A DNA stretch of 63,778 bases, the filler included, from Reclinomonas americana ATCC 50394 (taxonomy: Eukaryota): assembly GCA_048213135.1 (NCBI GenBank). It is 4 parts of 4 records of this genome, joined end to end, with 100 filler letters (N's around TTAATTAATTAA, not from the genome) between each part and the next. Parts side by side here need not be neighbours in the genome. Positions count along the whole stretch, not along the records: positions 1 to 28,482 come from PS015142.1; 3 more parts are not named here. One strand, written 5' to 3'. Position 1 is the stretch's first letter; every line of letters begins with the position of its first letter. Made by a program: the position numbers and the translations under genes. A model generated the notes under the pieces. The model was not told the origin of the DNA. It saw only the letters and a list, made by a program, of their open reading frames with translations, and did no database searches. Positions 1 through 63,778 of this stretch are shown piece after piece.

Positions 1-16
1 GCGTGTCACAACGCAC

Positions 17-485
17 CAGACGCGTACGACGACACAAACTTCTCAAAGTTCTCCGCCGTCAGCTCGTCCTTGAAGTTGTAGTGCAGGTTGTTGATGTAGT
101 CATCGATGGCCACCGCCGGGGTGGTGCCGCTCAGACCGAGGCGCGTCTGGTGCGATCCAAAGTGCTCGCTGTGCGTGTGTGGCAAAAGTGAGGTGAGCAC
201 GGTGGACAAGGAAGCAATGGTGGTTGGCGTCACACTCAACTTGTCGAGGTAGATGAAAGTGAGGTTGCTCTTGTACTTGGAGGCGGTCGACTTCAGCGGC
301 TCGATCAGGCTCTGCACCGCCTTCTTGTCGCTCTTGTCGACAAAGACCAGGGCGAACGGCTTATTGCGCGACAGGAACTCGCCGGCGTTGTCAAAGGTGA
401 GCTCACCAAACACCGGGCTCGCCGTGTCGGTGAAGAACGACTCGAGCGACGAGCTCTTGTCGTATGCCACACGCGGCTCGTCGAA
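17..485 (-). CDS. PDI: Protein disulfide isomerase, b/b' domain exons (partial; contig apparently inverted relative to the rest of the gene)
   Basis: Translation FFTDTASPVFGELTFDNAGEF...PAVAIDDYINNLHYNFKDELTAENFEKFVSSYASG resembles the PDI b' domain. Has an internal intron (donor GTTGAGT at 240) and ends at a GTGCGT donor (nt 16) that joins in frame to the + strand exon at 1535. Confidence 0.75.
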
Positions 486-1534
486 NNNNNNNNNNNNNNN
501 NNNNNNNNNNNNNNNNNNNNNNNNNNNNNNNNNNNNNNNNNNNNNNNNNNNNNNNNNNNNNNNNNNNNNNNNNNNNNNNNNNNNNNNNNNNNNNNNNNNN
601 NNNNNNNNNNNNNNNNNNNNNNNNNNNNNNNNNNNNNNNNNNNNNNNNNNNNNNNNNNNNNNNNNNNNNNNNNNNNNNNNNNNNNNNNNNNNNNNNNNNN
701 NNNNNNNNNNNNNNNNNNNNNNNNNNNNNNNNNNNNNNNNNNNNNNNNNNNNNNNNNNNNNNNNNNNNNNNNNNNNNNNNNNNNNNNNNNNNNNNNNNNN
801 NNNNNNNNNNNNNNNNNNNNNNNNNNNNNNNNNNNNNNNNNNNNNNNNNNNNNNNNNNNNNNNNNNNNNNNNNNNNNNNNNNNNNNNNNNNNNNNNNNNN
901 NNNNNNNNNNNNNNNNNNNNNNNNNNNNNNNNNNNNNNNNNNNNNNNNNNNNNNNNNNNNNNNNNNNNNNNNNNNNNNNNNNNNNNNNNNNNNNNNNNNN
1001 NNNNNNNNNNNNNNNNNNNNNNNNNNNNNNNNNNNNNNNNNNNNNNNNNNNNNNNNNNNNNNNNNNNNNNNNNNNNNNNNNNNNNNNNNNNNNNNNNNNN
1101 NNNNNNNNNNNNNNNNNNNNNNNNNNNNNNNNNNNNNNNNNNNNNNNNNNNNNNNNNNNNNNNNNNNNNNNNNNNNNNNNNNNNNNNNNNNNNNNNNNNN
1201 NNNNNNNNNNNNNNNNNNNNNNNNNNNNNNNNNNNNNNNNNNNNNNNNNNNNNNNNNNNNNNNNNNNNNNNNNNNNNNNNNNNNNNNNNNNNNNNNNNNN
1301 NNNNNNNNNNNNNNNNNNNNNNNNNNNNNNNNNNNNNNNNNNNNNNNNNNNNNNNNNNNNNNNNNNNNNNNNNNNNNNNNNNNNNNNNNNNNNNNNNNNN
1401 NNNNNNNNNNNNNNNNNNNNNNNNNNNNNNNNNNNNNNNNNNNNNNNNNNNNNNNNNNNNNNNNNNNNNNNNNNNNNNNNNGTGTTTTTTGCATTTTTTT
1501 GGTTTTGTTGTCGCTCATTCTCCTCCTCATTCAG

Positions 1535-2835
1535 GCACCCTCAAGCCACACCTGCGCAGCGAGCCCATCCCGGCAAAGCAGGAGGGCCCGGTGACGGTGG
1601 TGGTCGGCGACTCGTTCGAGTCGGTGGTTCTCGATGCGAGCAAGGACGTGCTGGTGGAGTTTTACGCTCCGTGGTGCGGCCACTGCAAGAAGCTGACGCC
1701 CGTGTACGAGGCGCTGGCCGAGCACTTTGCCGAGGACAAGGGCCTGGTGATTGCCAAGTTCGACGCCACTGTCAACGACCCGCCGTCGACCGTTTCGATC
1801 GAGGGCTTCCCCACGATTCTCTTCTTCCCGGCCAACGACAAGGCCAACCCGATTACGTTTGAGGGCCCGCGCAAGCTCGAGGGCTTCATCTCGTTCATCG
1901 AGGAGCGCGCCACGGTCCCGGTGAAGAAGACGCCGAAGAAGGAGGAGGCGGCTGAGGCGGAGACGGAGGAGCCGAAGAAGGAGGAGTCGAAGGAGGAGGC
2001 GGCGGCGGCTGAGCCGAAGAAGGAGGCTGAGGCTGCTGAGCCGAAGAAGGAGGAGGCGGCGGCGGCGGCGGCTGAGGCCGAGGTGAAGAAGGCTGACGCT
2101 GAGGAGGAGGTGCAAGTCAAGGTGCAGAAGAAGGACAAGAAGAAGAAGGGCAAGAAGGACAAGGCCGAGGAGGAGGCCGCTCGCATCAAGGCGGAAGAGG
2201 AGGCCGATGCTGCTCGCCAGGCCGCGCTGCAGGCCGAGGCCGCGGCACGCAAGAAGGCGCAGGAGGAGGAGGAGGCTGCGCGGCGCAAGGCCGAAGAGGA
2301 GGAGGCCATCCGCTTGAAGGCTGAGGCGGCCGAGGCTGCCCGTCAGGCGGCGCAGGCGGCAGAGGAGGAGCGTGTGAAGGCTGTTGCGGAGGAGGAGGAG
2401 GCTCGCCAGAAGGCAGCCGCCGAGGAGAAGAGCAGCAAGAAGGCCAAGAAGGACAAGAAGAAGGGCAAGAAGGCGGCGGCGGCGGAGGAGGATGCCGCGG
2501 CTGCTGCCAAGAAGGCTGAGGAGGAGGCGGCCAAGAAGAAGGCCGAGGAGGAAGCCGAGGCGGAGGCGGCTGCAGCTGCAGCGAAGAAGGCCAAGGAGGA
2601 GGAGGAGGAGGCCAAGAAGAAGGCTGAGGAAGAGGAGGCAGCAGCGGCGGCGGCGGCCAAGAAGGCCGAGGAAGAGGCCAAGGCGGCAGCAGAGGAGGAG
2701 GAGGCCAAGGCGGCGGCAGCGGCGGCGGCAGAAGCCGAAGCGGCGGCAGCAGCGGCAGCCAAGAAGGACAAGGCCACCAAGCCGAAGAAGGACAAGAAGC
2801 GCATCGGCAAGAAGGCGCCCAAGGACGAACTGTAG
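1535..2835 (+). CDS. PDI: Protein disulfide isomerase, terminal exon: x-linker + a' thioredoxin domain + long K/E/A-rich tail, C-terminal KDEL
   Basis: LKPHLRSEPIP x-linker, DVLVEFYAPWCGHCKKL active site, EGFPTI cis-Pro motif, ends KDEL-stop. Polypyrimidine tract and CAG acceptor upstream. Confidence 0.93.
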
Positions 2836-8500: not shown

Positions 8501-11500
8501 GACCGGAGGGCGTTCAACACGCGATCGCGTTCGTCCTCCATTTGCTTCTTGGTGGCATGATAGGCCTGTCCCTGTGCCGACTGGAACGCCGGTCCCTTGC
8601 CCTGCGATTCCCATCTCGTCAGCCACAACAACAACAACACCAGACAAATATGAGACACGCCACGAGGCTCTCCCAACCTGCGCAGTTGGATGTGCCAACA
8701 GAGTGCGCCGTTTCCGCACGCCTGACGCCTGGCTGTGTGCCTGCACGCGTGATCCTGCACGCGATCCAGTGGCCGACGATCCAGCCAATCGCGATGGCGG
8801 CTCCGGCCGCAGCACCGATGGTGGCGGCTGCGCCGGAATATCACCACGCAAGACCGACGACGTTGGCGTCTCACCTCTGGCAGTCAGCAGTNNNNNNNNN
8901 NNNNNNNNNNNNNNNNNNNNNNNNNNNNNNNNNNNNNNNNNNNNNNNNNNNNNNNNNNNNNNNNNNNNNNNNNNNNNNNNNNNNNNNNNNNNNNNNNNNN
9001 NNNNNNNNNNNNNNNNNNNNNNNNNNNNNNNNNNNNNNNNNNNNNNNNNNNNNNNNNNNNNNNNNNNNNNNNNNNNNNNNNNNNNNNNNNNNNNNNNNNN
9101 NNNNNNNNNNNNNNNNNNNNNNNNNNNNNNNNNNNNNNNNNNNNNNNNNNNNNNNNNNNNNNNNNNNNNNNNNNNNNNNNNNNNNNNNNNNNNNNNNNNN
9201 NNNNNNNNNNNNNNNNNNNNNNNNNNNNNNNNNNNNNNNNNNNNNNNNNNNNNNNNNNNNNNNNNNNNNNNNNNNNNNNNNNNNNNNNNNNNNNNNNNNN
9301 NNNNNNNNNNNNNNNNNNNNNNNNNNNNNNNNNNNNNNNNNNNNNNNNNNNNNNNNNNNNNNNNNNNNNNNNNNNNNNNNNNNNNNNNNNNNNNNNNNNN
9401 NNNNNNNNNNNNNNNNNNNNNNNNNNNCCCGTTGCGGAGACAGCGTCGGCCTGCGAGGGTGGTGACGAATTGAGACAAGACAATGAGAGCACACAAGTCA
9501 CATGCATGCCCACGCACCGCTGGGAACGACAGGCGATCAACATAGGCAGAGAACGCTGCACTGGCCGACGAGTGGTTTCGCACTGTCAGCGTCAGCGTCT
9601 TGCGCTCAAACAGGCCCACCATGCCGAAATCGAGACACGGTACTGGCGCCGTTGGCGGCCGCTCAGTCGGCGGTGCCGTCGTCGTGGCTCTTTCAAAGCA
9701 TTGATCCACCAGCCAAGAGGCAAAACTGCGCAGAGAAGGCGAAGGTGTGAATAACTAAATAACTGCAGACTGCAACCACGAGTGGCGACGGCGCGTGGGG
9801 GGTACGCACGGCTGAATGGGCTTGTTGACTCGATGAACATCGCCGTCGAACGCGTCGGCCGAGTCGGCAGTGGCAGTTCCCGCCGTGGCCTCGCTGGTGC
9901 CTTCGACAAACCCACTGGCAAGTGCGCCGACTTCGGCAGCGATTTGCGTGGTGACCTCCTGTGTATGCACAGTGAGTTCGTGATGATGGGATTTCAGCAA
10001 GGCGAGCTGAGCGACTCGCCTCCTCGTTGGCCACATCCAGCGACAGCACCATGCCCTCGGTGCGACCAGACACCGCCAGTGCAATCGGCGTCTCCATACC
10101 CTGAACCCAGCACGGTAGCAGGATGCGGAACGGACCCACGACGGTTGGCGTCACTTGCATCGTCAGCAGGGCGTCGGAGCACGGCGCAATGCGCCCAGTT
10201 GCCGCCGAAATGCCCACCATGCAGGCTGTGAACACACAAGGACGACCACGTGAGATCACAGTGTACTGCGCAAGCTCGCGCATGCACACACACACAAACC
10301 ATCAGCTTGCACACTGATCCACTCGAAATCGGCGGGCACAAGACTCAGATTCTGTAGTGTGATCTCAAACAGCTGCGGAACGTTGATGGTACACGGCGGC
10401 AGCTCGATCACCGGTGGTCTCATGACGACCTGAGCGCACCACAGTAAATACCGATGGCCACAGATACAAAAAGAGAGAGAGAGTCACGGAGGAGCACCTT
10501 TGGGGCGTCCACCACCGCTCGAACACTGATGAAGCAACTCTCGCCGTCTTCGACAGCGCATTCCACCAGACCCTCCAGACGGAACGGATACTCGGGATTG
10601 AACACGACCGACACAATCTGCGTGACACGAGGCGTCAGCTGCCTTTGCAAAATTAAGCGCACAGCAACATGTCGGCATGCACACCTCCTTGGATTTCTTG
10701 GCCAGCACACCCTCGGGAGGCAGGAAGAGGAACTTGGGTTGCTCCGACATTTCGTGCGTCAAGTCGTCACTGCACCACAGTAACGAGGATCGGAACGAGT
10801 AAGCATCTCACACAGCACACTGCATGAGAGACGAAACAGCGCCGCACCTGTCTCGCAACCGACTTGCCGTGACACGCTCGGCCAGCATCCAGTGCACCGG
10901 CGTCGGCGAGTCGTTGACCACGGTGAGTGTGGCGGCAACCTCGGTGCCGACCTCGACCACACCAAAGTCGATGGCGGCCTCCTCGAGGAAGACCTGCGGA
11001 CCGGCAACCTGGCCCGAGATGTACAGCTTCACTGGCCGCGCCGCGTCGAACTTGCATGGGAGGACGAGAGCCAGCGTTTGTGGAGAGTTGATCAGCAAGC
11101 TGACCTTGACCTGCAGGATGGTGGTAGGCGTTTGAGCCAAGGAAGAAATGAAGATGAATTCGAAGCATGAAAAGGAACGGACCTGCATGGCCTGGCCGGC
11201 TGCAATCTTGCCATTAAAAGGCTGCAACTGGATGGCGTACGGCCCGAAATCCGAGTCGTCGGTGGTGATGCCCTCGTAGTCACCGTGTGAGTCGCCCTCC
11301 AGTGATCGTGTTCTCTTGCGTTCCTCTTCGGCGTAGTTGTACTCGCGATTGTTGCGAATCCCATTGTGCACACCCTCCGGCAGCTCCCACTTGAACGACA
11401 CGGCAACATCGCCACGGTTGTGCAACGTAATGTACCGGTCGTAGCGCTCACCCAGCAGCATCTTGCCTTGGAAGGCAATGATGGGAGGCACCAGTTCGAC

Positions 11501-14500
11501 GCTGACCTGGCACGCATCGCCAAACATATCGAAGCGCTGCACGGACATGTCATAGCAGCCGCGCTCCCGATCACTGTCCACCAGCAAACGCCGCAGTGCA
11601 TCCGTGGCAAAGAAGCGATTCGGGTCCAGAGTGGCACCGACCAGCGACGCATCCAACTCGGCCTCGTCTACGCCACCGCGTGAGAATCGACGCACACAGC
11701 AAGACGACAAACAACAAAGCGAACAACCAACCGTTTTGTGTGCGCTCCGAGAGCTCTTTGGTGAGCGATCCACCAGGCAGCCCCTCCACCCACAGACGAG
11801 CCACCGCAGTGTGAGTGCCAGGGTGAACGTCGCCAGGAGGCGCAAAGGCAAAGTGGAACACCGCCGTGTCTTGCGCGGCCACCTGCCGTGATGGAGGCTC
11901 CACCAGGAACACCGACGACGATTTCCCTTGCTGGTTCTGGTGAGTAGGCAGTGTTGAGTGAGACAAGAGCGCCGACATAAATTCGCACAGAGGCACACAC
12001 ACATACCAGCAATTTCCACGTCACAGTCAGGGGTACAAGGCTCGAGTTTGTCACTTCGACTGCGCACGCACAAAAAACAAACAACGGTGAACAAGTTGGT
12101 GACAACAACTCACGATACCATGTGCAAAACTCACCCGCGCGAACTTCCTTCGACGTCAGCGTGGTCTCATTAAACGCCAGCGTCGATGAGTGAATTCTGG
12201 GATCAAAGGGCTCGCCGTTGACCTTGCTCACAAACACATTCGGCAGCGTGCCAGTACCTGCAGCATCCACAAATGAGCAACGGTGGCGCATGAAGGCGAC
12301 CGCTTGCAGCGCGTCGACGCAAGGATACCGTTCAGCGTGTACCGGAACACCGTCATGTTGTCGCACACTATATACAGATTCTGCTCAGCCATGTCGGTCG
12401 ACAGTGGCGCAAACAACACTTGCACATCCACCTCTGCGACCCAAGAAATGGAGGAAAGCATTAGCTTCCGCCGACTCGCAGAATCACCACTCGCTGATGC
12501 TCCTCTCACCAGACGATGGCACGAGCATAAAGTCGGTCGGGTACACCTCAAAGTTGACACCACACTGCACACGTGTGCGCTCCGCCAGAGCCGAGCTCAA
12601 CAGGTAACCAACGCCCTCAGTTTCGTATTGCAGGAATTCTGCCAACACAATCGGTGACGATGAGACGGGGCGTCGCCAAGCATTCTATCGCGAGGCACAC
12701 AAACCGTCTTCGGAGAGCAGCCAAAAGTTGCCGTTGCCACCAATGTTCTTGCAACGGAACACATTGTCGGACTCGAATCCGATCAACGCAGGCCTGCAGA
12801 AGGTAGACGAGAACAATCAACGCCCCAGTCATCAACTCCACCCCACAATGACGACGACGACGGAACTTGCAGTTGAGCCGATTCGGCAGCGTCAGTCGCG
12901 GTGGGTGGTTACGGCCGAGAAGAGTCACTATGATACGAAGAGGCGAAGTGAGATGACAAGCACATCTGCATCTCTCCTGCTCAATAAACCACCAACCTTC
13001 CAACTCGGAAAAGTCAGTGACCACCACGGCGGCGTCGTCGACATCGGCCACACTGTCCGGTTTGAACAACACCACCACAGTGATGCTCATACCCGGTGCG
13101 ACCAGTGCATTGTTGTTCGGCAGCTTGGCCAAGTGCACGGAAAAGCGAGAAGTGGTCGGTGGCAGCACGCGCAACCGCCTTGACGTGCTCGACACATTCA
13201 TCACCGTGAACGACTGCTCCAGTTGCTCACCCACCTGCGCATCGAACACAAAACATACGACGCCGTAATCAGTCAGAATGCTCCGTGCCCCCACCCTCAC
13301 TGTACATGGCCACCACTGACCCTGTACGCCGAGAAGGTCACGGTGTTGGTGGAGAGCGCAAACGCTTGGTCTCGCCGTGTACCACTCAGTCGCGGTCGTT
13401 CGTCCTTGCTCGGCAAGTCGCGGAATCGGGGATTCACACGGAAGTTCAACTTGCTAGTCATGTGAGCCTCAAGCTGCGCGTCAGCCGGATGCTGCTGGGC
13501 CACCGCTGTGCGCAAACGCTGTCGCTTTGTCGGTGTGGAGGCACCAACGACCTGACCGTCACCACCGAGTTTGAGCGGAACCACCATCTCCGTCAGGCGC
13601 TCCTTGTGGCTCTCAAACTCCTTCTGCTGCACCTCAGCCTCGTCCACAAAGCGCACCACAGAGCCGGCACGCGACTGTCCACCACCAGTGACAACAGGTG
13701 GACGCGTGGGCGGTGGTGATCGGTCTGCGCACGCATATGAATTCAACTGAATGCTCACTCTCTCCGCTAACCAGTGCATACGCACCGAGGTTGACTTGAC
13801 TGCCACGCGAAAGGGTGACAGAGGCAAAACGAGGCATGGACTCGCGCTTGGAGGCCAGCGGCAGCGGCTGGAACGTCCTGAACACGCTACTGTCTTTGCT
13901 GGTCATGAGCGCCACCGCGTCCACCAGATGGTAGCGCGCCAGCAGCGCCTCATCCTCTTGCAGGAACTGATTCACCAAGCTCTCATCTGCACGTGCGATC
14001 ACACTGGTGAGCCATTCGTTCATCGATTCCTCGCGTGCACATGGAAATGGAGGGGCGAACCAGGTTGATCCGCGTGTTCATGGTCGATCTGCACAGCGGG
14101 CGGTGAGCGGTGAGATGCGAGTCACGCACACACTGACATGTTGTTCAAGCACAAAGACGCACTGCAGATGGCCCGGCTCCATCACCCGGATCCGAGGGGA
14201 ACTGCGAGGAGGCGTGAACCGATCGCGGCGCACCGCTGCCCTCCGCAGCTGCCGTTGTTGTCGGCGCCGACGAGGCAGCGACAACAGCCGGCTCGTCGTC
14301 CAGCTTCACACTCTTGGCGACCTCGGCACGCAGACGTCGCATGCGATGCCGACTGGCCTCCACCAAGTGATCGGCAAGTCGCATGCATTCCTCCACCGAG
14401 TCGCGCGCCCGACCCTTCACCAAACGAATCGTGGAGCCGTACTCATCTTGCGGCTCATTGTCGTCCGGCTCGTCGACTCCCAAGCCCTTGGACGGGTGTG

Positions 14501-15305: not shown

Positions 15306-17285
15306 ATGGGTGAGCAAACCCGCTTTCTTGCCTTCTTCCCCCCGTGTCTCCTTCTCTCTTAACACTGTGCCATGCAGCAGCTTCGTCATCGTCATCGTCG
15401 TCATTATCGTTGAATGCAGTTGGCATCCGGTCGGCGTTGTTGATGTGGTACGATGCACACTGTCGGCAGCTGCCCTGGCGCAAGCCACCTCCTGTGTACG
15501 CTTCTGCCTCTGCAGGTACTACGGCGCACAGTGATTGCTCTTGTGCGTCGCGTTGTGACCATCTGTGTGCATCAGACGACGATGTCTCCGAGGAGCGCCA
15601 GCAGCATGCGTATCGCGTGTGGGTGTCGGAGATTATGCTGCAGCAGACGCGAGTGCAGACGGTGATTGAGTACTTTGAGCGATGGATGCGTCGCTTCCCG
15701 ACAGTTGCGCTTGTTTGATTGAGCCTGCAGCTGTGCATTCGCTCATGCATGCCTGCATGCAGGTGTCGGTCCTTGCCAGTGTATCGCTCGAGGTGCTGTT
15801 GGTGTTAGTGTTGATGTTAATGCATCCGTTGGCACTCACACCTGTGCAGGAAGTGAATGAGACGTGGGCTGGCCTGGGCTATTATCGGCGAGCGAAAATG
15901 CTGCATGCCGGCGCACAAAAGGTCGTCGGCTGCAGCACGATGCGTGGCCTGGTCCCGGCGACGGTGGGCGATCTCAAGCAGATCCCTGGCATTGGTGACT
16001 ACACGGCCGGAGCCGTGTCGTCGATTGCGTTTGGTCGTGTGGAGGCACTGGTGGACGGCAATGTCATGCGCGTGCTGTCGCGGCTCTGTTGCATCGACGA
16101 CGACATTAAGAAGCCGGCTGTGACCAGGACGTTTTGGTGAGCGACCATGCATCTTATGCCGCTTCCACCGTCGTCTCACTGGCACCGCCCACGATCGCAA
16201 GGTCGCTGGCTCGCGAGTTGGTGGATCCAGGTCGGCCCGGTGACTTCAACCAAGCCCTCATGGAACTCGGCGCCGTGGTGTGCACGCCCAAGTCACCATC
16301 GTGCGCCACATGTCCGATCAAGGAGCACTGCCGTGCGTACGCGCAGCAAGTGGAAAAGGGCGACGAGTATGCGGTGCGATGACAATCAACGTGCCTTTGT
16401 GTCACTGTACTCTCGTTCTCTCACACTCGCGTCACAGGTCACGCTGTATCCGGTCAAGTCGAAAAAGGCCGCCGTGCCTGAAATCTCCACTGCTGTGGCC
16501 GTAGTGAGTACCGATCAGGCACCTCCGTCGTATTTGCTCGTGCAGCGGCCGGCCGAGGGCCTGCTGGCATCGTTGTGGGAGTTTCCGTGGTTCGTCTTCT
16601 TGTCAACAACACTCTTTTTTCCCCGTTGTTACTCTCCTCCTCATCCTTCTCCTCCTCTTCGTCGCCACAGTGTGGCCGTGGACAAGTCGGCCGACGCAGA
16701 TGAGCAACGACAAGCGCTGGTGGAATTCGCGCGCGAGGTCGTTGGTCTGCCGGCGGTGCAGGTGACTGAGCATGTAGTGTGCGCCGTGGTGACACACACA
16801 TTCTCGCATCTGCGGCAACACATGCACGTGCACGTGTTGCGCGTGCACCCGTCGTGTGCCGACGTCGCCACCGGTCAACTTCTCGGCGCACACGACTGGT
16901 CGGCTTCGGTGCGCAGTGCTGCCGGTCGTGGTGTCGTGCAACCTCAACCGTGGCGCTGGGTGCCGGCCGCGGAGATGGCGGAGGTGGCCTTGTCGAGTGG
17001 CATGCGCAAGGTGCTGCACTCGGCCGCCCTCAACAAATCGGTGCTGTCCACGTTTTCGGTGACGAAGCGGCCGCGAAAACCGAAGAAAGAAGCCAAGGAG
17101 GAGGAGGAAGATGACGATGACGACGACGGCGAGGATGTGAAGATGGAGGAGGAGAAGGGAAAAGGCGGCGATGACGTTGATGCCGACGACGACGACGATG
17201 AGGTGGTGGAGATCACTCCAGAGGAGGTGCGACCACCACCCCGAAAGCGAGCCAGAAAAGCCAGTGCGGTCGCCGTCACCACCAA

Positions 17286-17318
<33 letters not shown>

Positions 17319-17376
17319 GAAGAGTGGCGCGACGCAGAAAACATTGTCGACGTTTTTCACTCGTAGCGGGAAGTGA
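15306..17376 (+). CDS. MUTYH: A/G-specific adenine DNA glycosylase MutY homolog
   Basis: [32 protein letters not shown], Hh[36 protein letters not shown], 4Fe-4S motif [22 protein letters not shown]-like [10 protein letters not shown] and HTFSH, C-terminal PIP box QKTLSTFF. First coding exon is only ATGG. Confidence 0.96.
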
Positions 17377-17391: not shown

Positions 17392-20300
17392 TCACGTGCG
17401 GCGATCCCGGTGGCGACTGCTGTCCGTGGGCGGATTGATGCACGGCATGAAGGGTCGCAGGGCTAACCGCGTGCGTATTTGCCGCGCACTCAGTGGGGCG
17501 GCAAACTGCTGCGGGTCGAGCGGAATGACCTCGTCGGGCAACAGCGGAACATGAATCCCGAGTCCGGCGTCATAATACACCGTCTGATCGTGATGGTGTA
17601 AGGGGGGGAGGAAAGACATGATGATATTGTTTTTTTGTGTCCGCACCTGCCACTGGCTGTCGGGTGACAGCACGAACCAGAGCGTGGCAACAGAGGCACC
17701 TGGTCCGTCGATATTAGAGTACTCGCGCACAAGCATGCCGTGCACCGAGAACGCACGTCCCGGACGCTGCGCGCGCTGGAGTCAGCATTCATCGAGAGAA
17801 AAACAATTACCATCGCCTCGCCAAACCTCCAGATCATGTACTTGTCTCGATGAGCGCGACTCCTGCTGCTGGAGATGCAGGTACACGTCGAGGTGGTGGT
17901 CGGCGGCATGCAGTGCCGTCTCCATATCGAGACCGACACTGGCGACTGGCTCCTCACGTACGCGCACGTGCATTTCTTGTGGAGGCGGACGGCGACGGCG
18001 GTGATGCGTCGAAGCCACCACCTCCTCGTCGTCGTTGATGACAAGCTGCACGTCGCCCACATCGCGCAAGTACTCTGCGTCCGCGTCCAAGACACTGTCG
18101 GTGCTCGACGCATCATCGTCGCTGTTCGCCGTGGCCTCCTGCTGGTCGCGTTGTCGCCGGCGCTCTTCTTCCAGCTCCTTCCGACGAGTCTCGACCAGCT
18201 TCCGACGCTGCTTGCGCAACAGCTCTCGCTGACGCTTCTCTTTCGCGGCCTTCTTCTCGCGACTGCCGCAAACGCAATAAAGGGAATCAGGCTTGTGGGA
18301 GGCTGATCCCAGTTCATGCGCACGACAAACCTCGTCGCAGCTGCCGTCTTGGACTCCCGATTCCGACGCTTGTCGTCCTTCTTGTCGCTGTCACTACTAC
18401 TGCTACTATCGTCATCGTCGCCGTCGGTGCTGGTGGACTTCTTGCGACAGCAACACATGGAAAACAGCTTCCGAAAGATGCCAAACTTGCTATACAGCGT
18501 GTCAGCACTCCACAGCGGAACAACATGCAACTGGTGTGGGCACGCAACAAGCCAAGATACAGAAGGGCGAGCAATCCCAGGTAGAAGGCCAGTGAGGCCG
18601 CCAACTTGCCCCAGCAGCCGCTAAACAACGAGCACGTAATGTTGAAGCTGCGGAGGTCGCATCGCAGGGGTGAGGCACGCCCGCACACGTGGATGGTCAG
18701 CAGAACGAATCGCACGCAACAATCCACATGAACAGCTGTCGGAACCACCGGACCCGAGAATGGCAGGCGTCCCCGAGTCACTGGGTGCCGACCCACCCTG
18801 CATACCCTGGTTGATCATCATGGCGGTGGTGTTGAAGCTGACCACCACAGTGTCGATGAGTGACTGCCCGCTGTCGTACAGCAGCACTGCACGTGCGCCA
18901 CGTAATGAGTAACAGATGGAAGTCATTGCTGAGCACATCAACGGCACCTGAGCAAATGTGATCCGCCTGAACCGACGTCTCGGCGAAAATGTCAAACACA
19001 AACAGGTGCGTATCACCCGGTGCAATCGACGCAGTCTGTGCCTGCACCTCTTTGATGTCGCTCGAACACTGTGCCACAGTGACATAAAAGTCGGCAGTCA
19101 CGTTGCCGATGCTGGCCACCAGGACCTTCATCTTGCCGTTGTTGGAGTTGCCCTCGAACGTGCCGACCGTGGCACTTCTGATGACACCGCCACTCCTGCA
19201 CCTCACACTCGTCAGTCAACGCAGTCATCGGCCCCGTGCGCGCCATAGTGGAGGCCGCACCTGTTCACCACATATTGCACATTGTCGGCCTTCAGCGTGA
19301 TCGTAATCACACTGGCCTGCAAGCTCCGAATCTGGTACGCCAGGTACGTGTCGTTGCGACCGCTCTCGCGCAGGCTCACAAAGTTGCCGAAGCCGTCCAG
19401 CAGGTAGCGTGGCGTTAGGCCCTGACTGACGCGCTGGAGATCAGACTGCGCACATTCGTTATTTTTGTTGAGATGAGTGTAACACAGCAGTACTTGGGAG
19501 CATCTGGGACCAGCACCTGGTACAAGTCCTGCAGCTGATTGTTGAGGCAGGAGCCGGCTGGTTTATCGCACGCATTAGCATCGTACTTGAATGCCTGCGA
19601 GAGCATGGTGGTGAGCATCACGAGCGAACCACCATTGCTGGCATAAAACAGCGAGCAAACACAACGTAAAAACCGACACCGATCTTGTCGCACTCGCGAC
19701 CGTCGAATGTGATCAGTTCACGGTCGACCAGCATCCACGCGGCAGGTCCCTGGTGCGCAGCGATTTATGAATGGAAGAGTGAAACACTGGATTGCAGATT
19801 GGCAACACTCCAGGCAAACCAGCTTCACAACGGGATCGTCGACCGGGATCCAAGGCACCATCATGATCTTGTTGGCGAGGATCGGCGGCGAGGTGTACGG
19901 TGAGAAGTCGCCCACCAGTCGCACTTGCACACTGCGATATCGATGCACAGAATCAGCACGTGTAGACGGCCAGTCTGTGCCATGTGTATGCGTGTGATCG
20001 ACTCACGCTCCATCCGACGACAGCGATCCCAACTGCGTGGGACTGACTCGCAACAGCTCCGTGCTGGTCTCGTTGTCGGAGGTGTATCGCACAATGCTCA
20101 CCGTGATGATGAAGAACACCTCCCACTCGCCGACCTCGTAGCCATTGTACCACAGATCGCGAAAGCGCATGCAGTGTGCACTCTGACCCGAGTCGGAGAA
20201 GAGGCCGCAGTTCAGACTGCCACGCGCTGGACCACTGCCAGAGCCCACCAGTCCGCCGAGCACGTCGCCAATGGAACACGAGCAGCAAAAGCCTTGCGAG

Positions 20301-20909
20301 TACTGCACGCGGTTGTTGTTGGCGTCGGTGTACCAGCCGCACGACGGATTGTCGTCGTGGTCGCCGGCCACACACTGGCTCAGCAGCAGCGACTGCAACA
20401 CGATGCGCTCCTTCGGCTTGGTGTTGAAGGTCTGCGCGCCCCAACAGCGTCATTCAGCGACCACCACTTCCACACTCCTCTACGCGTGGTGACAACAACG
20501 TACAAACCTGTCGATACGTGACCGGGTAACGCACATACGCGTTGGTCTTCTTCACCGAGATCTCCCACGGTTTCTGCAAGACGCGCGTCTTGCCGGTCTC
20601 ATCCGCCACACGATCGACCGTCGCCAGCAGTGCCTCGGTGTTGTTCTGCATACGTGCACGTCACGATAAGCACAGCGCGAGTGAAGCTTCCGGCGCCAAC
20701 CCCACCTGCCCAATGTCGACCGACATGGTCAACACAAACTTCTCCGTGCACGAGATGCCGCTGGCCGTGTCGCGCCCGCTTCCATCACGCACGCACTTGC
20801 TGACCTGTGACGAGGCCAGCAGCCCGCCCTCCACGCTGCTCACCGTCACCACCAGCATCACCGTCATCGCCACGAGCATGCTCGCCTGCACCACCACAAC
20901 AATGCGCAT
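17392..20909 (-). CDS. HAP2: HAP2/GCS1 gamete fusogen (class II fusexin) with long cytoplasmic tail
   Basis: Signal peptide; SQGFCCSC, ARGSLNC, SAHCMRFRDLWYNGYEVG, WMLVDRELITFDGRECDKIGVGFYAFKY...CDKPAGSCLNNQL; Ig-like domain III; TM helix followed by CCCRKK. All introns GT-AG with the frame maintained. Confidence 0.95.
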
Positions 20910-24503: not shown

Positions 24504-26472
24504 TCACTCGCGCGGCAGCTTGGTCAGCTCCTCGCAGTAGGCGGCCAGCAGCTTGATGCCCTGGATGTAGTTCTCGCGGTCAAACTTTTCGTTCTGGCCA
24601 TGAGCTGCGCGACGACAGAGGAGGGGAACGGATTTGAGCCTTGTTCTCTGACAGCGACACGCAAGTGCACAAGGGAGGACGCACCGCCGTCGTCGCTGCG
24701 GCCGAGCGGAAGCATCAGCACCGTCTTGCCGGTGGCCTCTGTGAAGGTGAGCGTGATTGGGATCGAGCCGCCCTCGCGAGTGAAATCGGGCGTCACGCCC
24801 CACACCAACTCGGTGGCCTTGCGACCAGCCACTGTACGCACACTGTTAGGAGGGATGGATGAATCACGCCGCGAGGGGAAGGCATGCACGCAACCGTCTG
24901 TGCACGAGGAGCGAGGTGAGAAGCGAAAAACAAGATATCAATGCATATATAGCATGCATTCGGACGAAACAGTTCGGGTGGTCGGGGTTGGCCAGCCACG
25001 GCTTGCCCGGGTGCTCGCACCACAGACGCATCTCGTTCGGTGAGCCGAGTCCCGCAAACACGCGCTCAACGTGGCGGCGAGTGACCTCAATGGCCTGATC
25101 CGGCGTCATGTCCGGCACGAGGCTGTATGCGCGACGGACACTTCAGCTCGACAAGAAATGCAATGCAAGACCACTCCGCCCACCACCACCTACCGGATGG
25201 AGAACTTGCCGACAACGCGTCCCGGAATCACCGTCTTGCCGCCGACACCGTAAAAGGCGCCCTCCACGCCGTGGATGGAGAGCGAGGGGTAGCGCCAGCG
25301 TTGCATCAGCGTGCGGATCTTGTCCTCCCTGCCCACTCTCCCCAATCAGCAACACAACAGCGACAAATGACAAGAGAAGGCGACAGAACTTGTGAATGAC
25401 ATGCGCGCCACCGGCGTCGCTCGAGAACTCGGTGAGCGAAAAGTCAATAGGCTCGTACAGAGCGCGCTCCTCGTCGGTGACGGGGCGCACCAGGTCAGAG
25501 ATGCCCTCGATCTGGATGTTGCCACGCGGGTCCACCAGCGAGCTGAAAATGTGCACGAGATCGGTCATCGGCTCGTGCACGGTGCCGCCAAAGAGACCAC
25601 TGTGCAGATCCTTGCGCGGACCCACAATCTCCACAAAGAAGTAAGTCAGCCCACGCAGGCCTGTGCATGCAGGAGAGTCGTGTGGTGAGCCACCGTGCGC
25701 CTGGAGGAAAGGCCACACAACCTCCACCTACTCCACCCCACTCACCGTACGTCAGGCACGGCTTGCTCTTGCTCAGCCAGTAGTTGTCGCTGATGCACAC
25801 GAAGTCGGTGCCGGCCATGAACTCGCGACCCCGCGGTCCGAGCACAAACTCCTCCAGACCAAGGCTGCCGCTCTCCTCCATGCCCTCGGAGATGAGCTGC
25901 GGGAGAGTTGAGCAACAGAGGGAGAAGGGAGGACGATCAGGAAAGAAGCATAACCTTGATGTTGACGGGCAGTTCCCGTCCCAGTGCCTGATACGCCTCC
26001 ACAACCCACAGCTGATTGGTATGGTCCGCGGTGAGAGTCGCAGAAACAACAACAACATACACGTCAACACAAACGAACCCACGCGAGGCCAGGGCCCTGC
26101 ATCGCACACCAAAGCACATGAGAAAAACACGTGCAACATACATTTTCCGGTGCAAGCAAACAGCACCTTGTCATCAGTGGTGCCACGGCCCCACAGCTTG
26201 CCGTCCAACTCAGTCATGGTGAACCTGTGCACAACCAGCACAGCACATGAGAGACACGCGACACGACACGCACAGAGGCCGCTGCATGCACTCACGGAGG
26301 CTGCATTGTGAGAGTGAGTGATCGTGAGACAACAAGGAAGGAAAATGTCGACTGATGCAACGCACCGTGTTCCAGCCATCGTCCAAGCGCGCCGGCTGCA
26401 CATCATAGTGGAAGTAGATGAGCAGTGTCGGCTTGGAGGCGTCACTGCCAAACTGCGCCAGAAGGATCTGCA

Positions 26473-26511
<39 letters not shown>

Positions 26512-26920
26512 GACAAGAGAGAGTGATAACAGACAACAGAAGGAACGCAACAGGCGGCAGCTGCATGCTGGTGCCCTCCTGTGTGGCAGTAGCAGCAGCA
26601 GCAACAGTGTGAGTGAGCGTGTGAGTGAGAATGTAAGAGAGCATTCATGCGAGTTTTTTTCACCTGTGCGCCGAGCTCACACAGCTCTGCCGTGCCTCCC
26701 AGGCGACGCACCCACTCAACAAGCCACTCGGCCTGACGCACGCAGTCGCCTGTGCATGCACAGTGAGCGAGAAGTGCAAGAAAGAGAGACTGTGTGTAAG
26801 AGAGAGAAAGTAACTGCGATGCGCGGGGTCCGAGCTCACACTGGGAATGGCCACAGCCTCACCCAAGCGCGCCACGTACTCGTCGGCATGTGCATCCACA
26901 AACGCAAAGAACTCCTCCAT
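24504..26920 (-). CDS. CNDP2: Cytosolic non-specific dipeptidase (M20A; CNDP2/Dug1 family)
   Basis: [88 protein letters not shown]. Includes 3-, 5-, 18- and 27-nt exons. Confidence 0.96.
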
Positions 26921-26990: not shown

Positions 26991-28482
26991 ATGCTGAGCT
27001 GCGGCTGTGGTGCGCTTCTCCTCTGTTCCCCCCTCCTCTCTGTTGCCTCCGCCTTATCATCTCCGTGCAGGCCGCGAGGGCGAGCTGGGTGCCGGCCACG
27101 TGCTGGAGAGCGATGTTCCCATTCGCGTCGAGTGTGCTGCGTTTGCTGCAGTTCCGTCCACTGTGCCTCCTTCTCTCTCTCCTCTCACCATGTGCGCGCC
27201 CGCTCACTGTGTCGTCGCAGGAGAGTGGCGATGCAGGTGTGCATCACTGGCGTGTTTCATCGTTGTGCGTGTTGGCACTGAACTCCTTCCTGTGATGATG
27301 CAGCTGGTGTGGGCCTCGTGACGGTGGCGAGTGTGGAGCCTGTGGAGCGTGTGGTTCGCGTGTCGGCTGGCGAGCATCATGCGCTGGCTGTCACTGGTGA
27401 TTTCTCGCTCGATCATTGCAGTCTCCTTTGTGCACCACTGACGATCCATGCTGGTGGGTGCAGACGCGGGTCGGTTGTACAGTTGGGGATGTGGGTCGCG
27501 CTGGTGTCTTGGGCGTGAGAGCACCGCCGATGCCAACACGCCGCAGGTGGTGAGCTTTCCGGACCTGGAGGATGGACGGGCGCGACGAGTGATTGCTGCG
27601 GCGGCTGGATCGCAGTGCAGTGCGGCGGTCACCAGTTGCGTGCAGTGTGCATGCTGATTGACCGCTTCTCGTTTCCCGGGACTCACCCGCTGTGCAGACG
27701 ACGGGATCTTGTGGACGTGGGGCTTTTCTCGAGAGGGTCAACTGGGTCACTCGGACTTTCGGCATCGAGCGCTGCCGACGGTGGTGGAGGCGCTGCGACG
27801 CAAGGCGATTGTCGATGTGAGCTGCGGCGACTCGCACCTGGTCGCTCTCTCAGGTATCCTATGCCATTCAGGGGAGAAGAGAGAGGGAGAGAGTTTGTTT
27901 ACGCATCGCTTCGCGGCAGAGGCTGGCGATCTGTTTGCGTGCGGCTGGAATGACTACGGCCGCCTCGGTCTCGGAGACAAGCAGCTGCGCTCCATTCCAC
28001 AGCAACTACGGCGCTTCACGCCAGACGGCTGCAATATTGTGCAGGTGGCCTGTGGCTGGCGCCACACACTGACTCTCTCCGGTGAGCACATTCACACTCA
28101 CACGAGTCTGTCCAATCACCCTCGCGCTCCTGCTCTCAAAGTGTGTACGCTTGCCAGACTCGGGAGTAATATGGTCCTTCGGCTCCAACGCCTACGGACA
28201 GCTGGGCGTCGGCGATACCAAGGATCGTCTGGTCGCCGCGCAGATCACCTTGGCCGAGACTATCGACTCGGCCGCTGGCTCCATGACGCCGGTGTTTACA
28301 CGCATCGCTGCTGGACAGCGCTTCAGTGCGGCCGTGTCCGGTGTGCCTCTCTGTGATCGCCCCTTGCGTGTGTCTGTTCTTCAAGGATGTTCTGACACTT
28401 GTGATAAAAGACGACGGTCGTGCCTGGTGTTGGGGCAGCTCGGCGCGTGGACAACTGGGACTCGGTGACGGTCAGCCGCCAG
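26991..28482 (+). CDS. RCC1-repeat (BLIP-II/RCC1 beta-propeller) protein, 3' truncated
   Basis: Repeats such as VSAGEHHALAVT-DAGRLYSWG, VSCGDSHLVALS-EAGDLFACGWNDYGRLGLG, VACGWRHTLTLS-DSGVIWSFGSNAYGQLGVG. Confidence 0.9.
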
Positions 28483-28526: not shown

Positions 28527-28538
28527 TTAATTAATTAA
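28527..28538. other. Artificial scaffold linker (TTAATTAATTAA within N padding)
   Basis: Palindromic six-frame stop 12-mer flanked by short N runs. Identical copies at 43440-43451 and 62153-62164. Confidence 0.9.
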
Positions 28539-39671: not shown

Positions 39672-41331
39672 CTACTTATGACTCAGCAGCTGATCCACTA
39701 CGGCCTGTGCCTTGGCGGCGCTGATGCCACAGTGAATGCGAATGAAGCCAGTGTTCTTCGGCTCGTTGCCCCAGAACATACTGCCGGGACACACGCCAAC
39801 GCCCTTTTCGAGAGCAGCAATGGTCGCCGCCATGTCCGACTCACGGTGGTGGCGGAACATGCCGTACATGGTTCCCTCTGTCAGAGGAGAGAAGGATGAG
39901 TAGGATGAAAGGAGACTGACAGAAAGATAGCCATACAGACACGAACCAGGCTCAATGGGCTCCCATCCGAGAGCCTCGGCAAACGCCGGTGCCATCAGCT
40001 GCCAGTTGGCACGCATCAAGGCGCCGACAGACGTCGCATGCGCCTCCATGTCGTCGAGGTGCTCCAGGAGGTACTCACCAAAGGGGATCTGCAGCCACGG
40101 CAAGCAAATGTAGATCGGATCGGCCACGCGGAGAATCTGCATCGCACCGCAGTCAGCCTCGTTGCGACATTGACATCAAGCGAAAAACAAAAACCTTGGT
40201 AATGGTCTCGGGATGCGAGATTAGGAACCCCACGCGCCATGATTGCACCGAGAGGCACTTGGAGAAACCGCGCGCCACCACCACATTGCGCGGCGGCATC
40301 TCCTCCTCCGACGAGCCCTTGATGGCGCACGTGTGAGAGTGTCCGTCCCACACCAGATCGGCGTAGCACTCGTCCGCAATAATCAGGCAGTCGTAGGCGC
40401 TGCAGAGGGTCACCAGACGATCGATCTCGTCCTCGCGCCACACTCGGCACGCCGGATTGCTCGGATTGCAGTAGATCAGCACCTGCAAGCCGGCCTTCAG
40501 CTCCGTCTCGATGCGCTCAAAGTCCGGCGCAAAGTCGGCCGTCGACGGCAGGTAGATCGGGTCGGCGCCAAACACGCCGCGGATCTGCAGCAAGTGGTAC
40601 GTGTAGAACGGCTCCACCAGGCTTGCCGCGGAGAGCGCGGTGAGGCACAAGAGCGGAAGAGAATCGAGATTTCGTCGTGGTTCACGTACCCGACGCGTGT
40701 CTTGCCCTCGGACTTGGCATACAGCATGGCCGACACGCATCCGCCAGCCACACCCTGCGCGCCACACACCGACTTGCGCGGCAGACGCATGCCGTAGCGC
40801 TCACGCAGCATGTGCAGCACTCCCTGCAGGTACACCTCGTCGCCGGTACGCGGCCGGTACTGATGAACTGCGTGCCCCGCCACCCCCCCACCTGCAGTGA
40901 GCACACAGACACGAGCAGCTGTGAACACAGACGCAACGAGCATCGCGCAGGCAAGCCTCTGCGCGCGAGTGGTCAGTGAGTGCAGCAGTCGCCTGGGAGT
41001 GATGGATCAATGCACTCACCGCCAGCCAACTGCCGCAGCAGCTTTGGTGGAGGCAGCTCAATGATGCCTTGCGCCACACTCGGCAGTCCCTGTGTGCACA
41101 CGCGCGCGCGCGTGAGTGAACATCTCCCGCTCTCTCTCTGTCTCTGTCCCCCTCACCTGCGCCGCACACCAGTCGTTAATGTCGCGCATCTACAGGTGCA
41201 TGCACGCGTGTGTGAGAGAGTGGCAGAGTGGGGGGGCACGCAGATAAGACACTCACTGTCGGGGAGGGCGGGAGCGTGGACAAGTCGAGCGCGCGCTTTT
41301 CCGACGTGGGTTCACCTGATGCCGAGGACAT
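39672..41331 (-). CDS. PLP-dependent aminotransferase class I/II
   Basis: VAQGIIELPPP, LVEPFYTYH, CNPSNPAC, IIADECYADL, GFSKCLSVQSWRVG (PLP lysine), VCPGSMF...FIRIHCG. Confidence 0.92.
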
Positions 41332-41544: not shown

Positions 41545-43066
41545 ATGCGCAAGACCGCAGTGAGTGGCAATCATGCACTTGCACAGCGTGCAAGTCACGC
41601 GCGTCACACTCCTGCTCCTCCTCCTTCATCATCATCTTCTTCCCCCACTGCATCAACTGTAACTGCAACAGAGGACGGTGCTCTGCAGCACTCACGTGCA
41701 CCGCGTGTGCATGTGGTGCCGCGCGAGGCCCTCTCGCTGAGCATGTGGCTGCGCCCCACTGTGTGGTGGCTGGTGACACGCGTGGTGGCGCTCGCCTGTG
41801 TGTACTTTGCCGTGATGTTCAGGTAAATCCCCTCCATTGTCATTTTCCCATTCTCTCTTGTCCTTGTGCATGACAATCACACAGTTTGCGGTATGTGGCC
41901 TCGCGCGCGGCAATCGCTGGCGATGTGGCGTCCGTGGCATCGTGGCTGGAGTCGAGCAGCTGTGAGTATCTGTGGCCGGATCCGTGCGGAGGCATGTTGT
42001 ACTGGGCGGCGGCGACGAATCAGTCGCAGGTGATGGAGTTGTTGATTGATCAACTGCCGGCCGACGACTTGGCCGAGCGCCTCGACGCCGCCATGATCTA
42101 CGCCGGCTCGCATGGTGACCCGGCCACTGCGCTGGCTCTCATGGCGTATCTGCCGGAATCGGAGTGGGCGACTCGTGTCGACGACTACGGCAACACGTCG
42201 ATCATGTGGGCCATCCGGGCGCAGCAAACCGAGTTGGCGATCAAGCTGATTCGCAAGGCACCGCTGCCGGTGCTGTCGTCTCAGTGCCCGCACCGCTACG
42301 CCGCCATGCATCTTGCGGCGTTCTACGGTCTCGCCACGGTGCTCGACGCGCTGTTGGAGTACCAACCTGCGCCGTATGTGGGCGCCGGAACGTACGAGGG
42401 CGAGACGGTGCTGATGCACGCCTCGTATCGTGGTCACACGGCGATTGTGGAGCGGCTGCTGACGCTGTTGCGTGTGCCAATGGATATCGTGTCAAACACC
42501 GCCACCGGTCACACGGCGTTGCTGCTGGCCACGGCCGCCGGACATGCCGACATTGCATTGGCGCTGATCGATCGCACTCCCGTGATGGATCTCATCTACA
42601 CCAACATGGAGCTGAACTCGCCCGCGATTCTGGCCGCCGCCCGTGGCGACGTGGTGATTATGCGTCGTCTGCTGGAGCGCATCACACCCGAAATCATCGG
42701 CTTGCCCAACTCGAGCGGCAACACCGCCCTCATGGAGGCCCTGGAGTCGCGACACATGGAGGTGGCGCACATGCTGGCCGACATGTGGCCTGGCGAGGTG
42801 CTGCGACAGATCTCCGTCAGGGGCGAGACGGCACTGTCACTGGCCGTGGCCACCGGCGACGTGGCCATGGTCATCAAGTTGTGCGAGAAGCGGGCTGCGG
42901 TGCCACGTCACGTTGCGTGTGGAGGTGGTTGTGTACAGAGTGAGAGGCACAGGCTGATTCATGTGTTTTTTTTCCTGTGCAGTATGGTGAACCGCTGCCA
43001 CCGTTTGTGGAGGAGTTCCTCCTGAAGCACGCGGCGCAGCTGTTTGTCAGTGTGGAGACGACTTGA
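41545..43066 (+). CDS. Ankyrin-repeat protein with N-terminal transmembrane segment
   Basis: Hydrophobic segment VWWLVTRVVALACVYFAVMF in exon 1. Ankyrin motifs GNTSIMWA, GETVLMHASYRGH, GHTALLLATAAGH, GNTALMEA, GETALSLA. Confidence 0.88.
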
Positions 43067-43439: not shown

Positions 43440-43451
43440 TTAATTAATTAA
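43440..43451. other. Artificial scaffold linker
   Basis: TTAATTAATTAA in N padding. Confidence 0.9.
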
Positions 43452-55143: not shown

Positions 55144-55233
55144 GTCGCACACACACAAGCAAGACGAAGAAGAGTGAGCAAAGGGGACAAGAGGACGCAC
55201 GCGCGTGTGTTCTTGGCCGTTCTTCTGTGACCA

Positions 55234-56763
55234 ATGGAGGCAGTGCTGGACTCGCGCATTGGCGCTCTTGTGCTGGCACCACTGGTGCTCATTCTGCTGC
55301 TCACCTCGGTGTTGCGCACATACGCGTCACAGTGGTTGCAGCCAAAGCGCAAGCCCGCAAAGGAGGCTGTGCAACTCGAGTCCGCATTCACACAAACACA
55401 CACACACTCTCTCTCTCTCTCGCACGCATACTCACTGTGCGTACGTGTGTGTGTGCATGTGACACAGGCAACAAACGCTGTACTTGCAGCTGTTCCAGCG
55501 CAACTGGTCGTTCCTCCCGCAACGTGCGGCGCTGCGACAGCGCACCAAGTTGATGGCCGACTTTGAGAAGCGCCTGCACCTGTCGCCAGAGGAGGCCAAG
55601 CGGAAGCAAGAGGAGGAGCAGGATATGAGTGCTGTTGCGTGGAGAATCAACAGAGAGAGAAGGAGAGAGCAAAGTCTTGATTGCCCACACGTGTCGATGT
55701 GTTGTTGTGTGCTTGTGTGCGNNNNNNNNNNNNNNNNNNNNNNNNNNNNNNNNNNNNNNNNNNNNNNNNNNNNNNNNNNNNNNNNNNNNNNNNNNNNNNN
55801 NNTGTGCGTGTGAGCAGCAACTTGCCAAGGCGTTTGGTGGTGGCGCCAACCCCGGCGACCAGATGCAGATGTTTGATGGCATGAAGGGCCAGATTGCAAT
55901 GGTGCTCTCCAATGTCGCCACCTATGCCATCATCTCGCAGCTCTTTGCCGGCATTGTGGCTGGTTCGATGCGCTATCCTGTCTTCTCTTCTCCCACCACC
56001 TCACTTCCTTTTACGCGTGTCGCACAGGCAAGTTGCCGTTCTCGCTGCTCGACAAGTTCCGACCAATGACGCAGCGCGGTGTCGATCTGCCGGGCCTGGA
56101 GATCAGCTACGTGACGTCGCTGTCGCTATACGTGCTGGTGATGGTTGGCGTGGGTGGATGCGTGGCGCTGCTGCTCGGCGGCCAGAATGGTGCGTCGATC
56201 TTCTTTGTTGTGATTCTGCGCACCTTCTCTTATGGCGTTGTGTGCAGACACGGCGATGATGACGCGCGCCATGGTGGCACCGATGCCCGGCATGGGTATG
56301 CCGGGCCAGGCGAACGCCAAGGACCCGCAGGCCATTCTCAAGGCCGAGACCGACAATCTGCACACCATCTCCTACCGCAGCGCCGTCAGCGTGTGCCACC
56401 GCAACTGGTTCTCGCCGCAGCCGTGGCTCGCCGTGGGCAGCACTGCTGCACCCTCCGCTCCGTCAGCGGCCTCATCCGCTGCTGCTGCTGCGCTGGCATC
56501 TTCCTCCTCCTCGTCGTCGTCATCGGCGGCGGCCGCATCCGCTGCTGGTCTGTCGTCGTCGAGCGGTGCAGCGGCTGGTGAGTTCGACACACTCGGCGTG
56601 GACATGGACGAGTCGGGCTCGCGTCGTTCTGTTGCGTCGACGCTGTGTTTGTGCATTACGATCAGCAGCTCTTTGTGTCTTCCGTCTCACGAATGACAAC
56701 TGTGAACAGAACGCCAAGCTCGACCAGTTGCGCGACAGAATGTCAAAGCAGCGTCGCCGCTAA
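55234..56763 (+). CDS. EMC3: ER membrane protein complex subunit 3 (EMC3/TMCO1 Oxa1 superfamily)
   Basis: LDSRIGALVLAPLVLILLLTSVLRTY, MFDGMKGQIAMVL, FAGIVAGKLPFSLLDKFRPMTQRGVDLPGLEISYVTSLSLY, ILKAETDNL. Confidence 0.85.

Positions 56764-59839: not shown

Positions 59840-60692
<853 letters not shown>

Positions 60693-61238: not shown

Positions 61239-62108
<870 letters not shown>

Positions 62109-62815: not shown

Positions 62816-63778
<963 letters not shown>

Follow-up and report, generated by a model that had tools for sequence, protein, structure and literature searches.

Introduction

Constitutive microexons of 1–15 nt, often frame-essential and missed by annotation, have been described in plants (PMC8831610). 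They include a 5 nt rice exon validated by RT-PCR and 1 nt exons in APC11 and VPS55 (PMC8831610, PMC4674806; a single-nucleotide exon for APC11 in PMC4674806), and the introns that flank plant microexons are seemingly removed consecutively (PMC8831610). In animals, a microexon is too small for exon definition and is rescued by intron definition across short flanking introns (PMC8378409, on PRP-40/PRPF40A); in C. elegans, short flanking introns make special factors unnecessary (PMC8378409). Intron definition has been proposed to be dominant in protists and fungi (PMC2397502), and the P450 genes of the basidiomycete Phanerochaete combine short introns and many exons with a shortest exon of 6 bp (PMC1184071). 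With regard to donor recognition, shifted-register 5′ splice sites are described in human (Roca and Krainer 2009, via PMC4856993), and the U1 arms of Entamoeba, Mastigamoeba and Physarum have co-evolved with atypical donors, standard and modified U1 both being said to be present in Physarum (bioRxiv 10.1101/2022.06.08.495308). These statements hold as far as the excerpts of the cited sources go.

Here, we describe a predicted 5 nt exon, CCTCC, in a dipeptidase gene of Reclinomonas americana ATCC 50394 (GCA_048213135.1). It lies in a stretch of 63 778 nt, filler included, which is referred to as the window. Exon 5 of the gene is an internal coding exon of no more than 15 nt with canonical GT–AG introns on either side. 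On its own it adds one case to a published class, and its layout is rare though already known; it is the surrounding splicing system that is unusual.

Methods

The homolog set for the dipeptidase was reduced from 71 matches to 54 by length (430–520 residues). For the stretch from exon 4 to exon 6, every solution with no, one or two introns (GT or GC donors, AG acceptors; 5403 in total) was enumerated and scored against the homolog profile. The genome-wide sample comprised chaperonin, Ras-family, Hsp70 and E2 loci, spliced-aligned to homolog profiles; in later alignment passes the splice-site weights came from training on the first pass, and there was no length term. The 113 loci gave 85 with introns above the score thresholds (28 were dropped), corresponding to 56 genes besides CNDP2. 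A filter that required no N, a YAG acceptor and a donor score above 0 left 175 internal exons; it lost some small exons, such as the 13 and 14 nt exons of Rab1, and the small-exon counts are therefore floors. Searches with AAA, aldehyde dehydrogenase and cyclophilin yielded no usable exon sample, the aldehyde dehydrogenase matches being mostly intronless and full-length, several of them on bacterial-looking contigs. Bacterial DNA is present in the assembly, with 16S and 23S rRNA on C1 (Table 1) and intronless chaperone genes on C2; a search for 18S rRNA yielded nothing but a bacterial 16S.

Window positions 1–28482 correspond to contig C134 and the remaining parts do not map there. The scaffolds of the window are joined through 44 + 44 N with a 12 nt spacer that carries stops in all six frames (28527–28538, 43440–43451 and 62153–62164).

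Gene model and the five-nucleotide exon

The hand-built model consists of 15 exons that form a single open frame of 472 residues, interrupted by 14 GT–CAG introns of 58–85 nt (14 introns per 472 codons; Table 1). A spliced profile aligner, run with a flat intron penalty that is blind to length, returned the identical 15 exons in the window. The largest exon, exon 10, matches the solved structures 2zof (E = 1.2e-27) and 4ruh (1.2e-26), both of cytosolic non-specific dipeptidase (CNDP2), and more weakly DUG1 (2.4e-22) and beta-Ala-His dipeptidase (7.6e-17). Full-length similarity assigns the predicted product to the CNDP2/DUG1 type, with CNDP2 as the closest match. Its homologs contain PF01546 and PF07687, and H-Y-D-V-Q-P, D-D-K, M-E-E-S, S-D-N-Y-W and H-G-Q-N-E-K, presumably the metal-ligand motifs, were all found in translations of the gene.

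Table 1. Coordinates of the features discussed. Positions are those of the window unless a contig is given.
Feature	Location	Strand	Remarks
CNDP2/DUG1-type M20 dipeptidase gene	24504–26920	-	15 exons, 472 residues, start codon provisional; length-blind spliced alignment agrees
Exon 3, 27 nt	26552–26578	-	Between 85 and 84 nt introns
Exon 4, 102 nt	26366–26467	-	G-W-N-T at its end; model
Intron 4, 65 nt	26301–26365	-	G/GTGCGT...TGCAG, phase 0; 55 nt in the second copy
Exon 5, 5 nt, CCTCC	26296–26300	-	One Pro codon and two bases of the next Pro; model, enumeration, spliced aligner, second copy
Intron 5, 71 nt	26225–26295	-	C/GTGAGT...CACAG, phase 2; weak donor (5th–10th percentile)
Exon 6, 58 nt	26167–26224	-	Model
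Exon 7, 18 nt	26079–26096	-	G-P-G-L-A-W; between 70 and 67 nt introns
Intron 12, 73 nt	24898–24970	-	T/GTTTCGT...CACAG, second-class donor; model
Exon 13, 3 nt	24895–24897	-	Tyr of H-P-N-Y; overlooked by the sequence-only reading
Intron 13, 63 nt	24832–24894	-	G/GTTGCGT...TACAG, second-class donor; model
Thioredoxin/PDI-like	9–2832		
DLEC1 cilium gene	10259–13453	-	Pfam
MutY-like glycosylase	15314–17373	+	
HAP2/GCS1 gamete-fusion gene	18781–20660	-	Pfam
RCC1-repeat gene	27442–28465	+	Divergent from CNDP2
Aminotransferase	40156–40800	-	
Ankyrin repeats	41874–43022	+	
EMC3	55231–56578	+	
FkbM methyltransferase	56837–57715	+	
PCNA 3′ half	59843–60692	-	Cut by a gap
PCNA 3′ half	61242–62107	-	Cut by a gap
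PhyH	63019–63390	+	
Rab1 1 nt exon (G)	G000:C7952:3173	-	L216; first base of Gly in I-G-D; flanking introns 120 and 246–254 nt
Mitochondrial Hsp70 1 nt exon (A)	G000:C207:66859	-	L195; completes Gly of G-I-D-L-G-T-T
Mitochondrial Hsp70 1 nt exon, second copy	G000:C742:34341	-	L196
Ubc13-like E2, 3 nt exon	G000:C86:165559–165557	-	L280; flanking introns 74/73 nt; in both copies
U1, canonical 5′ arm	G000:C343:5715–5887	-	Adjoins host-style introns
U1 variant	G000:C429:9347–9500	+	5′ arm changes at positions 5, 8 and 11
U1 variant	G000:C479:4310–4463	+	Allele-like to the C429 copy; changes at positions 5, 8 and 11
Bacterial 16S and 23S rRNA	G000:C1:279109–280629		L003

The sequence-only reading of this DNA had proposed a CCTCC microexon between introns of 65 and 71 nt, followed shortly by an 18 nt exon encoding GPGLAW; both were located, on the minus strand. 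It had also held the 5 nt to be essential for the frame and for a W..PF motif, and this is borne out: dropping them shifts the frame to a TGA at codon 5 of exon 6, and including them restores W-x3-PF, the spacing of the homologs. The gap between W and PF is exactly three residues in 48 of the 54 homologs, and the other six, which escape the regular expression, have the same spacing once aligned. Among the 5403 enumerated solutions, 1532 keep the frame open, and the model with the 5 nt exon is at the top with 702.5 bits, followed by 696.3 bits for the runner-up and 691.7 bits for the top single-intron solution.

The splice sites themselves are modest. Their summed score of 8.4 is beaten by chance motifs in three of 35 plain long introns, and the donor score of 4.1 lies between the 5th and 10th percentiles of true donors; this donor is canonical in type but follows a C, an uncommon context in this genome, where 34 of 37 GTGAGT donors come after a G. 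When the 141 nt stretch was put through 5000 dinucleotide shuffles, a YAG-N(1-10)-GT motif of any kind occurred in 2687, a frame-restoring one in 1285 and a 5 nt one in 511, and the bare motif at exon 5 is thus no better than chance. A 5 nt piece bounded by YAG and GT that also supplies the Pro arose in just 18 of the 5000, so that the case for exon 5 rests on frame and homology. An exact search of metagenome contigs with one 29 nt stretch of exon gave no matches.

A second copy of the gene, 94% identical, lies on contig C2410. Between the copies, 15 of 1212 nt of internal exon differ, with no change in length, and 46 of 998 nt of intron differ, with unequal lengths in eight of the 14 introns, including a 10 nt deletion in intron 4. 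The aligner again recovered the 5, 18, 27 and 3 nt exons in this copy. We infer that the two copies are alleles, since most of the genes searched came in pairs. Retention of the 5 nt in both is weak evidence by itself, the copies being 94% identical. Together, the splice sites, the need for the frame, the match to homologs and the retention in both copies argue that CCTCC is a genuine coding exon, constitutively included in the gene of a CNDP2/DUG1-type dipeptidase, with a probability that we put at about 0.88.

Towards the 3′ end of the gene, an apparent intron of 139 nt holds a second microexon, exon 13 (3 nt). It is the top of 918 open-frame solutions, 11 bits over skipping, and is retained in the second copy. 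The Tyr that it supplies falls at a position with Tyr or Phe in 53 of the 54 homologs, the last homolog being truncated there. In a strict sequence-only scan of the window exon 13 was the sole match, and exon 5 was missed.

Tiny exons and intron lengths in the genome

Tiny exons were found in further core genes (Table 1). The glycines of Rab1 and mitochondrial Hsp70 to which single-base exons contribute are invariant. The 1 nt exon of Rab1 is also present in a second copy (C6229, L215), and that of mitochondrial Hsp70 lies between introns of 69/84 and 74/83 nt in its two copies; the sole alternative found for these two 1 nt exons is a single intron with a noncanonical, T-starting donor. Rab7 contains a 9 nt exon with flanking introns of 150/139 nt, seen in the one copy examined. 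For the five microexons other than exon 5, the site sums of 14.5–19.0 are above those of chance motifs in all 35 plain long introns. No exon of 10 nt or less was found in the chaperonin set, for which the homologs are distant, and none of the chaperonin introns of 100–300 nt holds a convincing hidden exon. An 8 nt 'exon' at L280 arose because the aligner had jumped from one tandem paralog to the other, and it was dropped before counting; the tandem paralog lies just downstream of the Ubc13-like gene.

Several further observations concern these genes and their introns. Rab1 contains a run of consecutive 14, 13 and 17 nt exons. Both introns around the 3 nt exon of the Ubc13-like gene start with GTGCGTGTT and share another 8 nt word, and there is a hint that one of the two may have arisen from the other. 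A GC–AG intron of 62–63 nt with a GCAAG-type donor is present in an E2 gene (L267/L268, on G000:C4876 and C4765). Of 254 introns, 150 carry the branch-point-like motif CT[ACG]AC within 45 nt of their 3′ end, usually 15–30 nt before the acceptor, in a count made without a shuffle control.

Four of the 175 internal exons are 10 nt or less, where random spacing of introns would give about 14 (approximately 3.5 times as many), and eight are 11–20 nt, where it would give 13. The shortfall in the smallest class may reflect a soft penalty or under-detection. Of the proposal that there is almost no minimum exon size, one part holds, in that 1 nt exons are required in other genes; the other is tempered by the depletion of exons of 10 nt or less relative to random expectation. 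As judged from these gene models, exon size appears to have no hard floor in this genome.

Short introns predominate, with a long tail (median 74 nt for 241 introns; 185 of 50–100 nt, 25 of 101–200 nt and 30 above 200 nt). Some exceed 1 kb, and some of the long ones may be aligner misses. The strict regime of ~70 nt introns suggested earlier is therefore overstated, with 55 of 241 introns above 100 nt and two microexons flanked by longer introns. The accompanying suggestion to scan long introns for an internal YAG-N(0-10)-GT is unspecific by itself; the motif occurs by chance in 14 of the 35 long introns without a called exon, and a double-length intron was rejected as a stand-alone marker of a microexon.

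If exons of 1–9 nt do make up approximately 2% of the internal exons of core housekeeping genes, the organism would be a natural test system, in which the ordering of adjacent introns and the real lower limit of exon size could be addressed. Standard annotation would introduce frameshifts into essential genes, namely those for Rab1, mitochondrial Hsp70 and CNDP2.

Splicing of exon 5 and alternative readings

Exon 5 would be the by-product of two ordinary spliceosomal introns that lie 5 nt apart in an intron-dense gene. Each short intron would be recognized as a unit, through pairing of its donor and branch point with its acceptor over the length of the intron. Introns 4 and 5 would be removed one by one, so that exon 5 itself need not be recognized. 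Transcripts that skip the exon or retain an intron would meet early stops and be discarded. The same regime would permit the 1, 3 and 9 nt exons elsewhere in the genome: with an intron roughly every 100 coding bases, neighbours only a few bases apart are to be expected if nothing forbids them. On these grounds intron definition with sequential removal probably explains exon 5. Short-range intron definition alone cannot account for everything, because of the 55 introns above 100 nt and those above 1 kb.

Exon 5 could instead be real but regulated, its weak donor leading to partial skipping or retention and to decay, by which the level of the dipeptidase would be tuned. The low rank of this donor, within the bottom tenth of true donors, and the higher intron retention around plant microexons (PMC8831610, as excerpted) are in keeping with this; however, the C ahead of the donor would be dictated by the Pro codon, which accounts for the weakness without regulation, and we regard regulation as unlikely. 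Less likely still is a need for a dedicated inclusion factor or for exon bridging, as for animal neural microexons. Some microexons here do lie between introns of 120–254 nt, and 30 of the 241 introns exceed 200 nt, but exon 5 shifts the frame and has flanks of 65 and 71 nt, whereas the regulated microexons in the available text of PMC8378409 preserve the frame and are flanked by long introns. The TGC before the acceptor of exon 5 belongs to TGCAG, which is the most frequent acceptor in this genome (25 of 103).

Two readings that dispense with CCTCC altogether are both very improbable. In the first, the runner-up of the enumeration, an 8 nt exon at 26281–26274 between introns of 84 and 49 nt would give W-N-T-R-P-L-F. 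Its donor score of 4.8 is near that of exon 5, but the product is one residue over the homolog spacing, only one of 257 sampled introns is shorter than 49 nt, and the 8 nt piece and its donor are altered in the second copy, in which exon 5 and its sites are unaltered. In the second, a single GC–AG intron of 139 nt (26363–26225) would leave W-N-T-V-F in frame with no microexon. It is the top of the 68 single-intron solutions, is picked by the aligner once exons shorter than 11–12 nt are forbidden and has a precedent in the GC–AG intron of the E2 gene. It scores 10.8 bits lower, however, and W-N-T-V-F lacks the conserved Pro and is one residue short, and none of the 54 homologs has that spacing; its donor scores -0.9 even when treated as GT (the 5th percentile of donors is 2.6), and the E2 intron has a GCAAG-type donor. 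An assembly error or pseudogene with an artefactual frameshift, conceivable in an assembly fragmented into 16441 contigs, is largely refuted by the two separately assembled copies, which agree in an intact frame and in the same small exons.

A second donor class and a variant U1

Among the 257 donors sampled, a group of 60 combines T at +3 with G at +6, in most cases as GTTGCG. These are termed second-class and include five of the 14 donors of CNDP2. A G precedes only seven of the 60, but it precedes all 30 GTTxG donors and 152 of the 162 donors that lack T at +3 (Fisher p = 5e-33 for the contrast in G preference between the donor classes).

At least three U1 genes are present (L296–L298), as found among the 41 of 1208 candidates that were scored; all three are slightly below the Rfam gathering cut-off. 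A loop-motif pattern gave 12 matches, consisting of the same three genes and nine without an Rfam match. One gene has a canonical 5′ arm, and the two variant copies have loops and an Sm site that look intact (Table 1). Second-class donors are better matched by the variant (mean 7.9 versus 3.7 pairs), whose ninth base lies opposite the first G of the intron, one base out of register. By this complementarity, the second-class donors would correspond to shifted-register 5′ splice sites. The alternative that they begin TT-starting introns cut after the G was rejected, as the GT–AG junction fits better than the one-base-shifted one (15 wins and one loss in 30 informative cases; 55 wins and two losses in 99 controls), and cleavage is predicted to be still before the GT. 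Three equal-scoring U6 genes (L299–L301, on G000:C9242, C9240 and C8299) were found among the 48 of 4277 candidates scored, and one alignment shows a canonical ACAGAGA box.

A link between microexons and the second class was sought among the 12 donors around six microexons; three are second-class, which is no enrichment over the 60 of 257 genome-wide. Both donors around exon 5 are of the canonical type, and neither the second class nor the variant U1 therefore explains this exon. As a tentative proposal, for which we have less than even confidence and in which the causal step is conjectural, the major spliceosome might combine in effect no minimum exon size with two U1 snRNPs, the canonical one acting after exons that end in G and the variant at GTT(G)CG after others. 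Exon ends would then be freed of splice signal, and introns could lodge at every position of a codon and within a few bases of one another. If true, the variant U1 and its out-of-register donors would turn what is a rarity in human into a routine and genetically separable choice of splice site.

Other features of the window

The other genes of the window are listed in Table 1. The HAP2/GCS1 gamete-fusion gene and the DLEC1 cilium gene, both identified by Pfam, make it probable that the organism has flagella and a sexual cycle. PCNA is represented by two adjoining 3′ halves that are nearly identical, each cut by a gap; they are probably two alleles scaffolded in tandem.

Comparison with known systems

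Exon 5 departs from animal neural microexons in two features, its length of 5 nt not being a multiple of 3 and its flanking introns being short. It also sits in a housekeeping enzyme, unlike the neural microexon programme of animals, to which SRRM4/eMIC belong. Animal neural microexons, in the excerpts of PMC8378409, are alternatively spliced, have lengths that are mostly divisible by 3 and lie between introns of conventional or long size. The genes here resemble those of basidiomycetes, as far as these are described in the excerpted source, in their short introns, many exons and small exons across the genome; the minimum is 6 bp there (PMC1184071) and 5, 3 and 1 nt here, and the presence of the cilium gene DLEC1 speaks against a basidiomycete.

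In the open-access literature we found neither a description of this U1 variant nor a protist reported to have tiny exons at a comparable density, and among the matches listed there was no protist survey of such exons and no paper on GTTGCG donors; the excerpted text of PMC13326754 contains nothing on such a U1 variant. The shifted class accounts for 60 of 257 donors here and is a rarity in human according to the excerpts available. In the same partial accounts, the published U1 changes keep the canonical register, whereas the variant described here, changed at positions 5, 8 and 11, fits the shifted one.

Plant microexons are validated by RNA and conserved across species, whereas exon 5 is known from the DNA sequence of two allele-like copies. 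Plants have 2,398 such exons in ten species (PMC8831610, as excerpted), compared with four of 175 internal exons of 10 nt or less in this genome, which suggests a much higher density here, in a small sample. Like the plant microexons, exon 5 is tiny, internal and coding, is bounded by GT–AG introns on both sides and restores both the reading frame and a conserved protein sequence.
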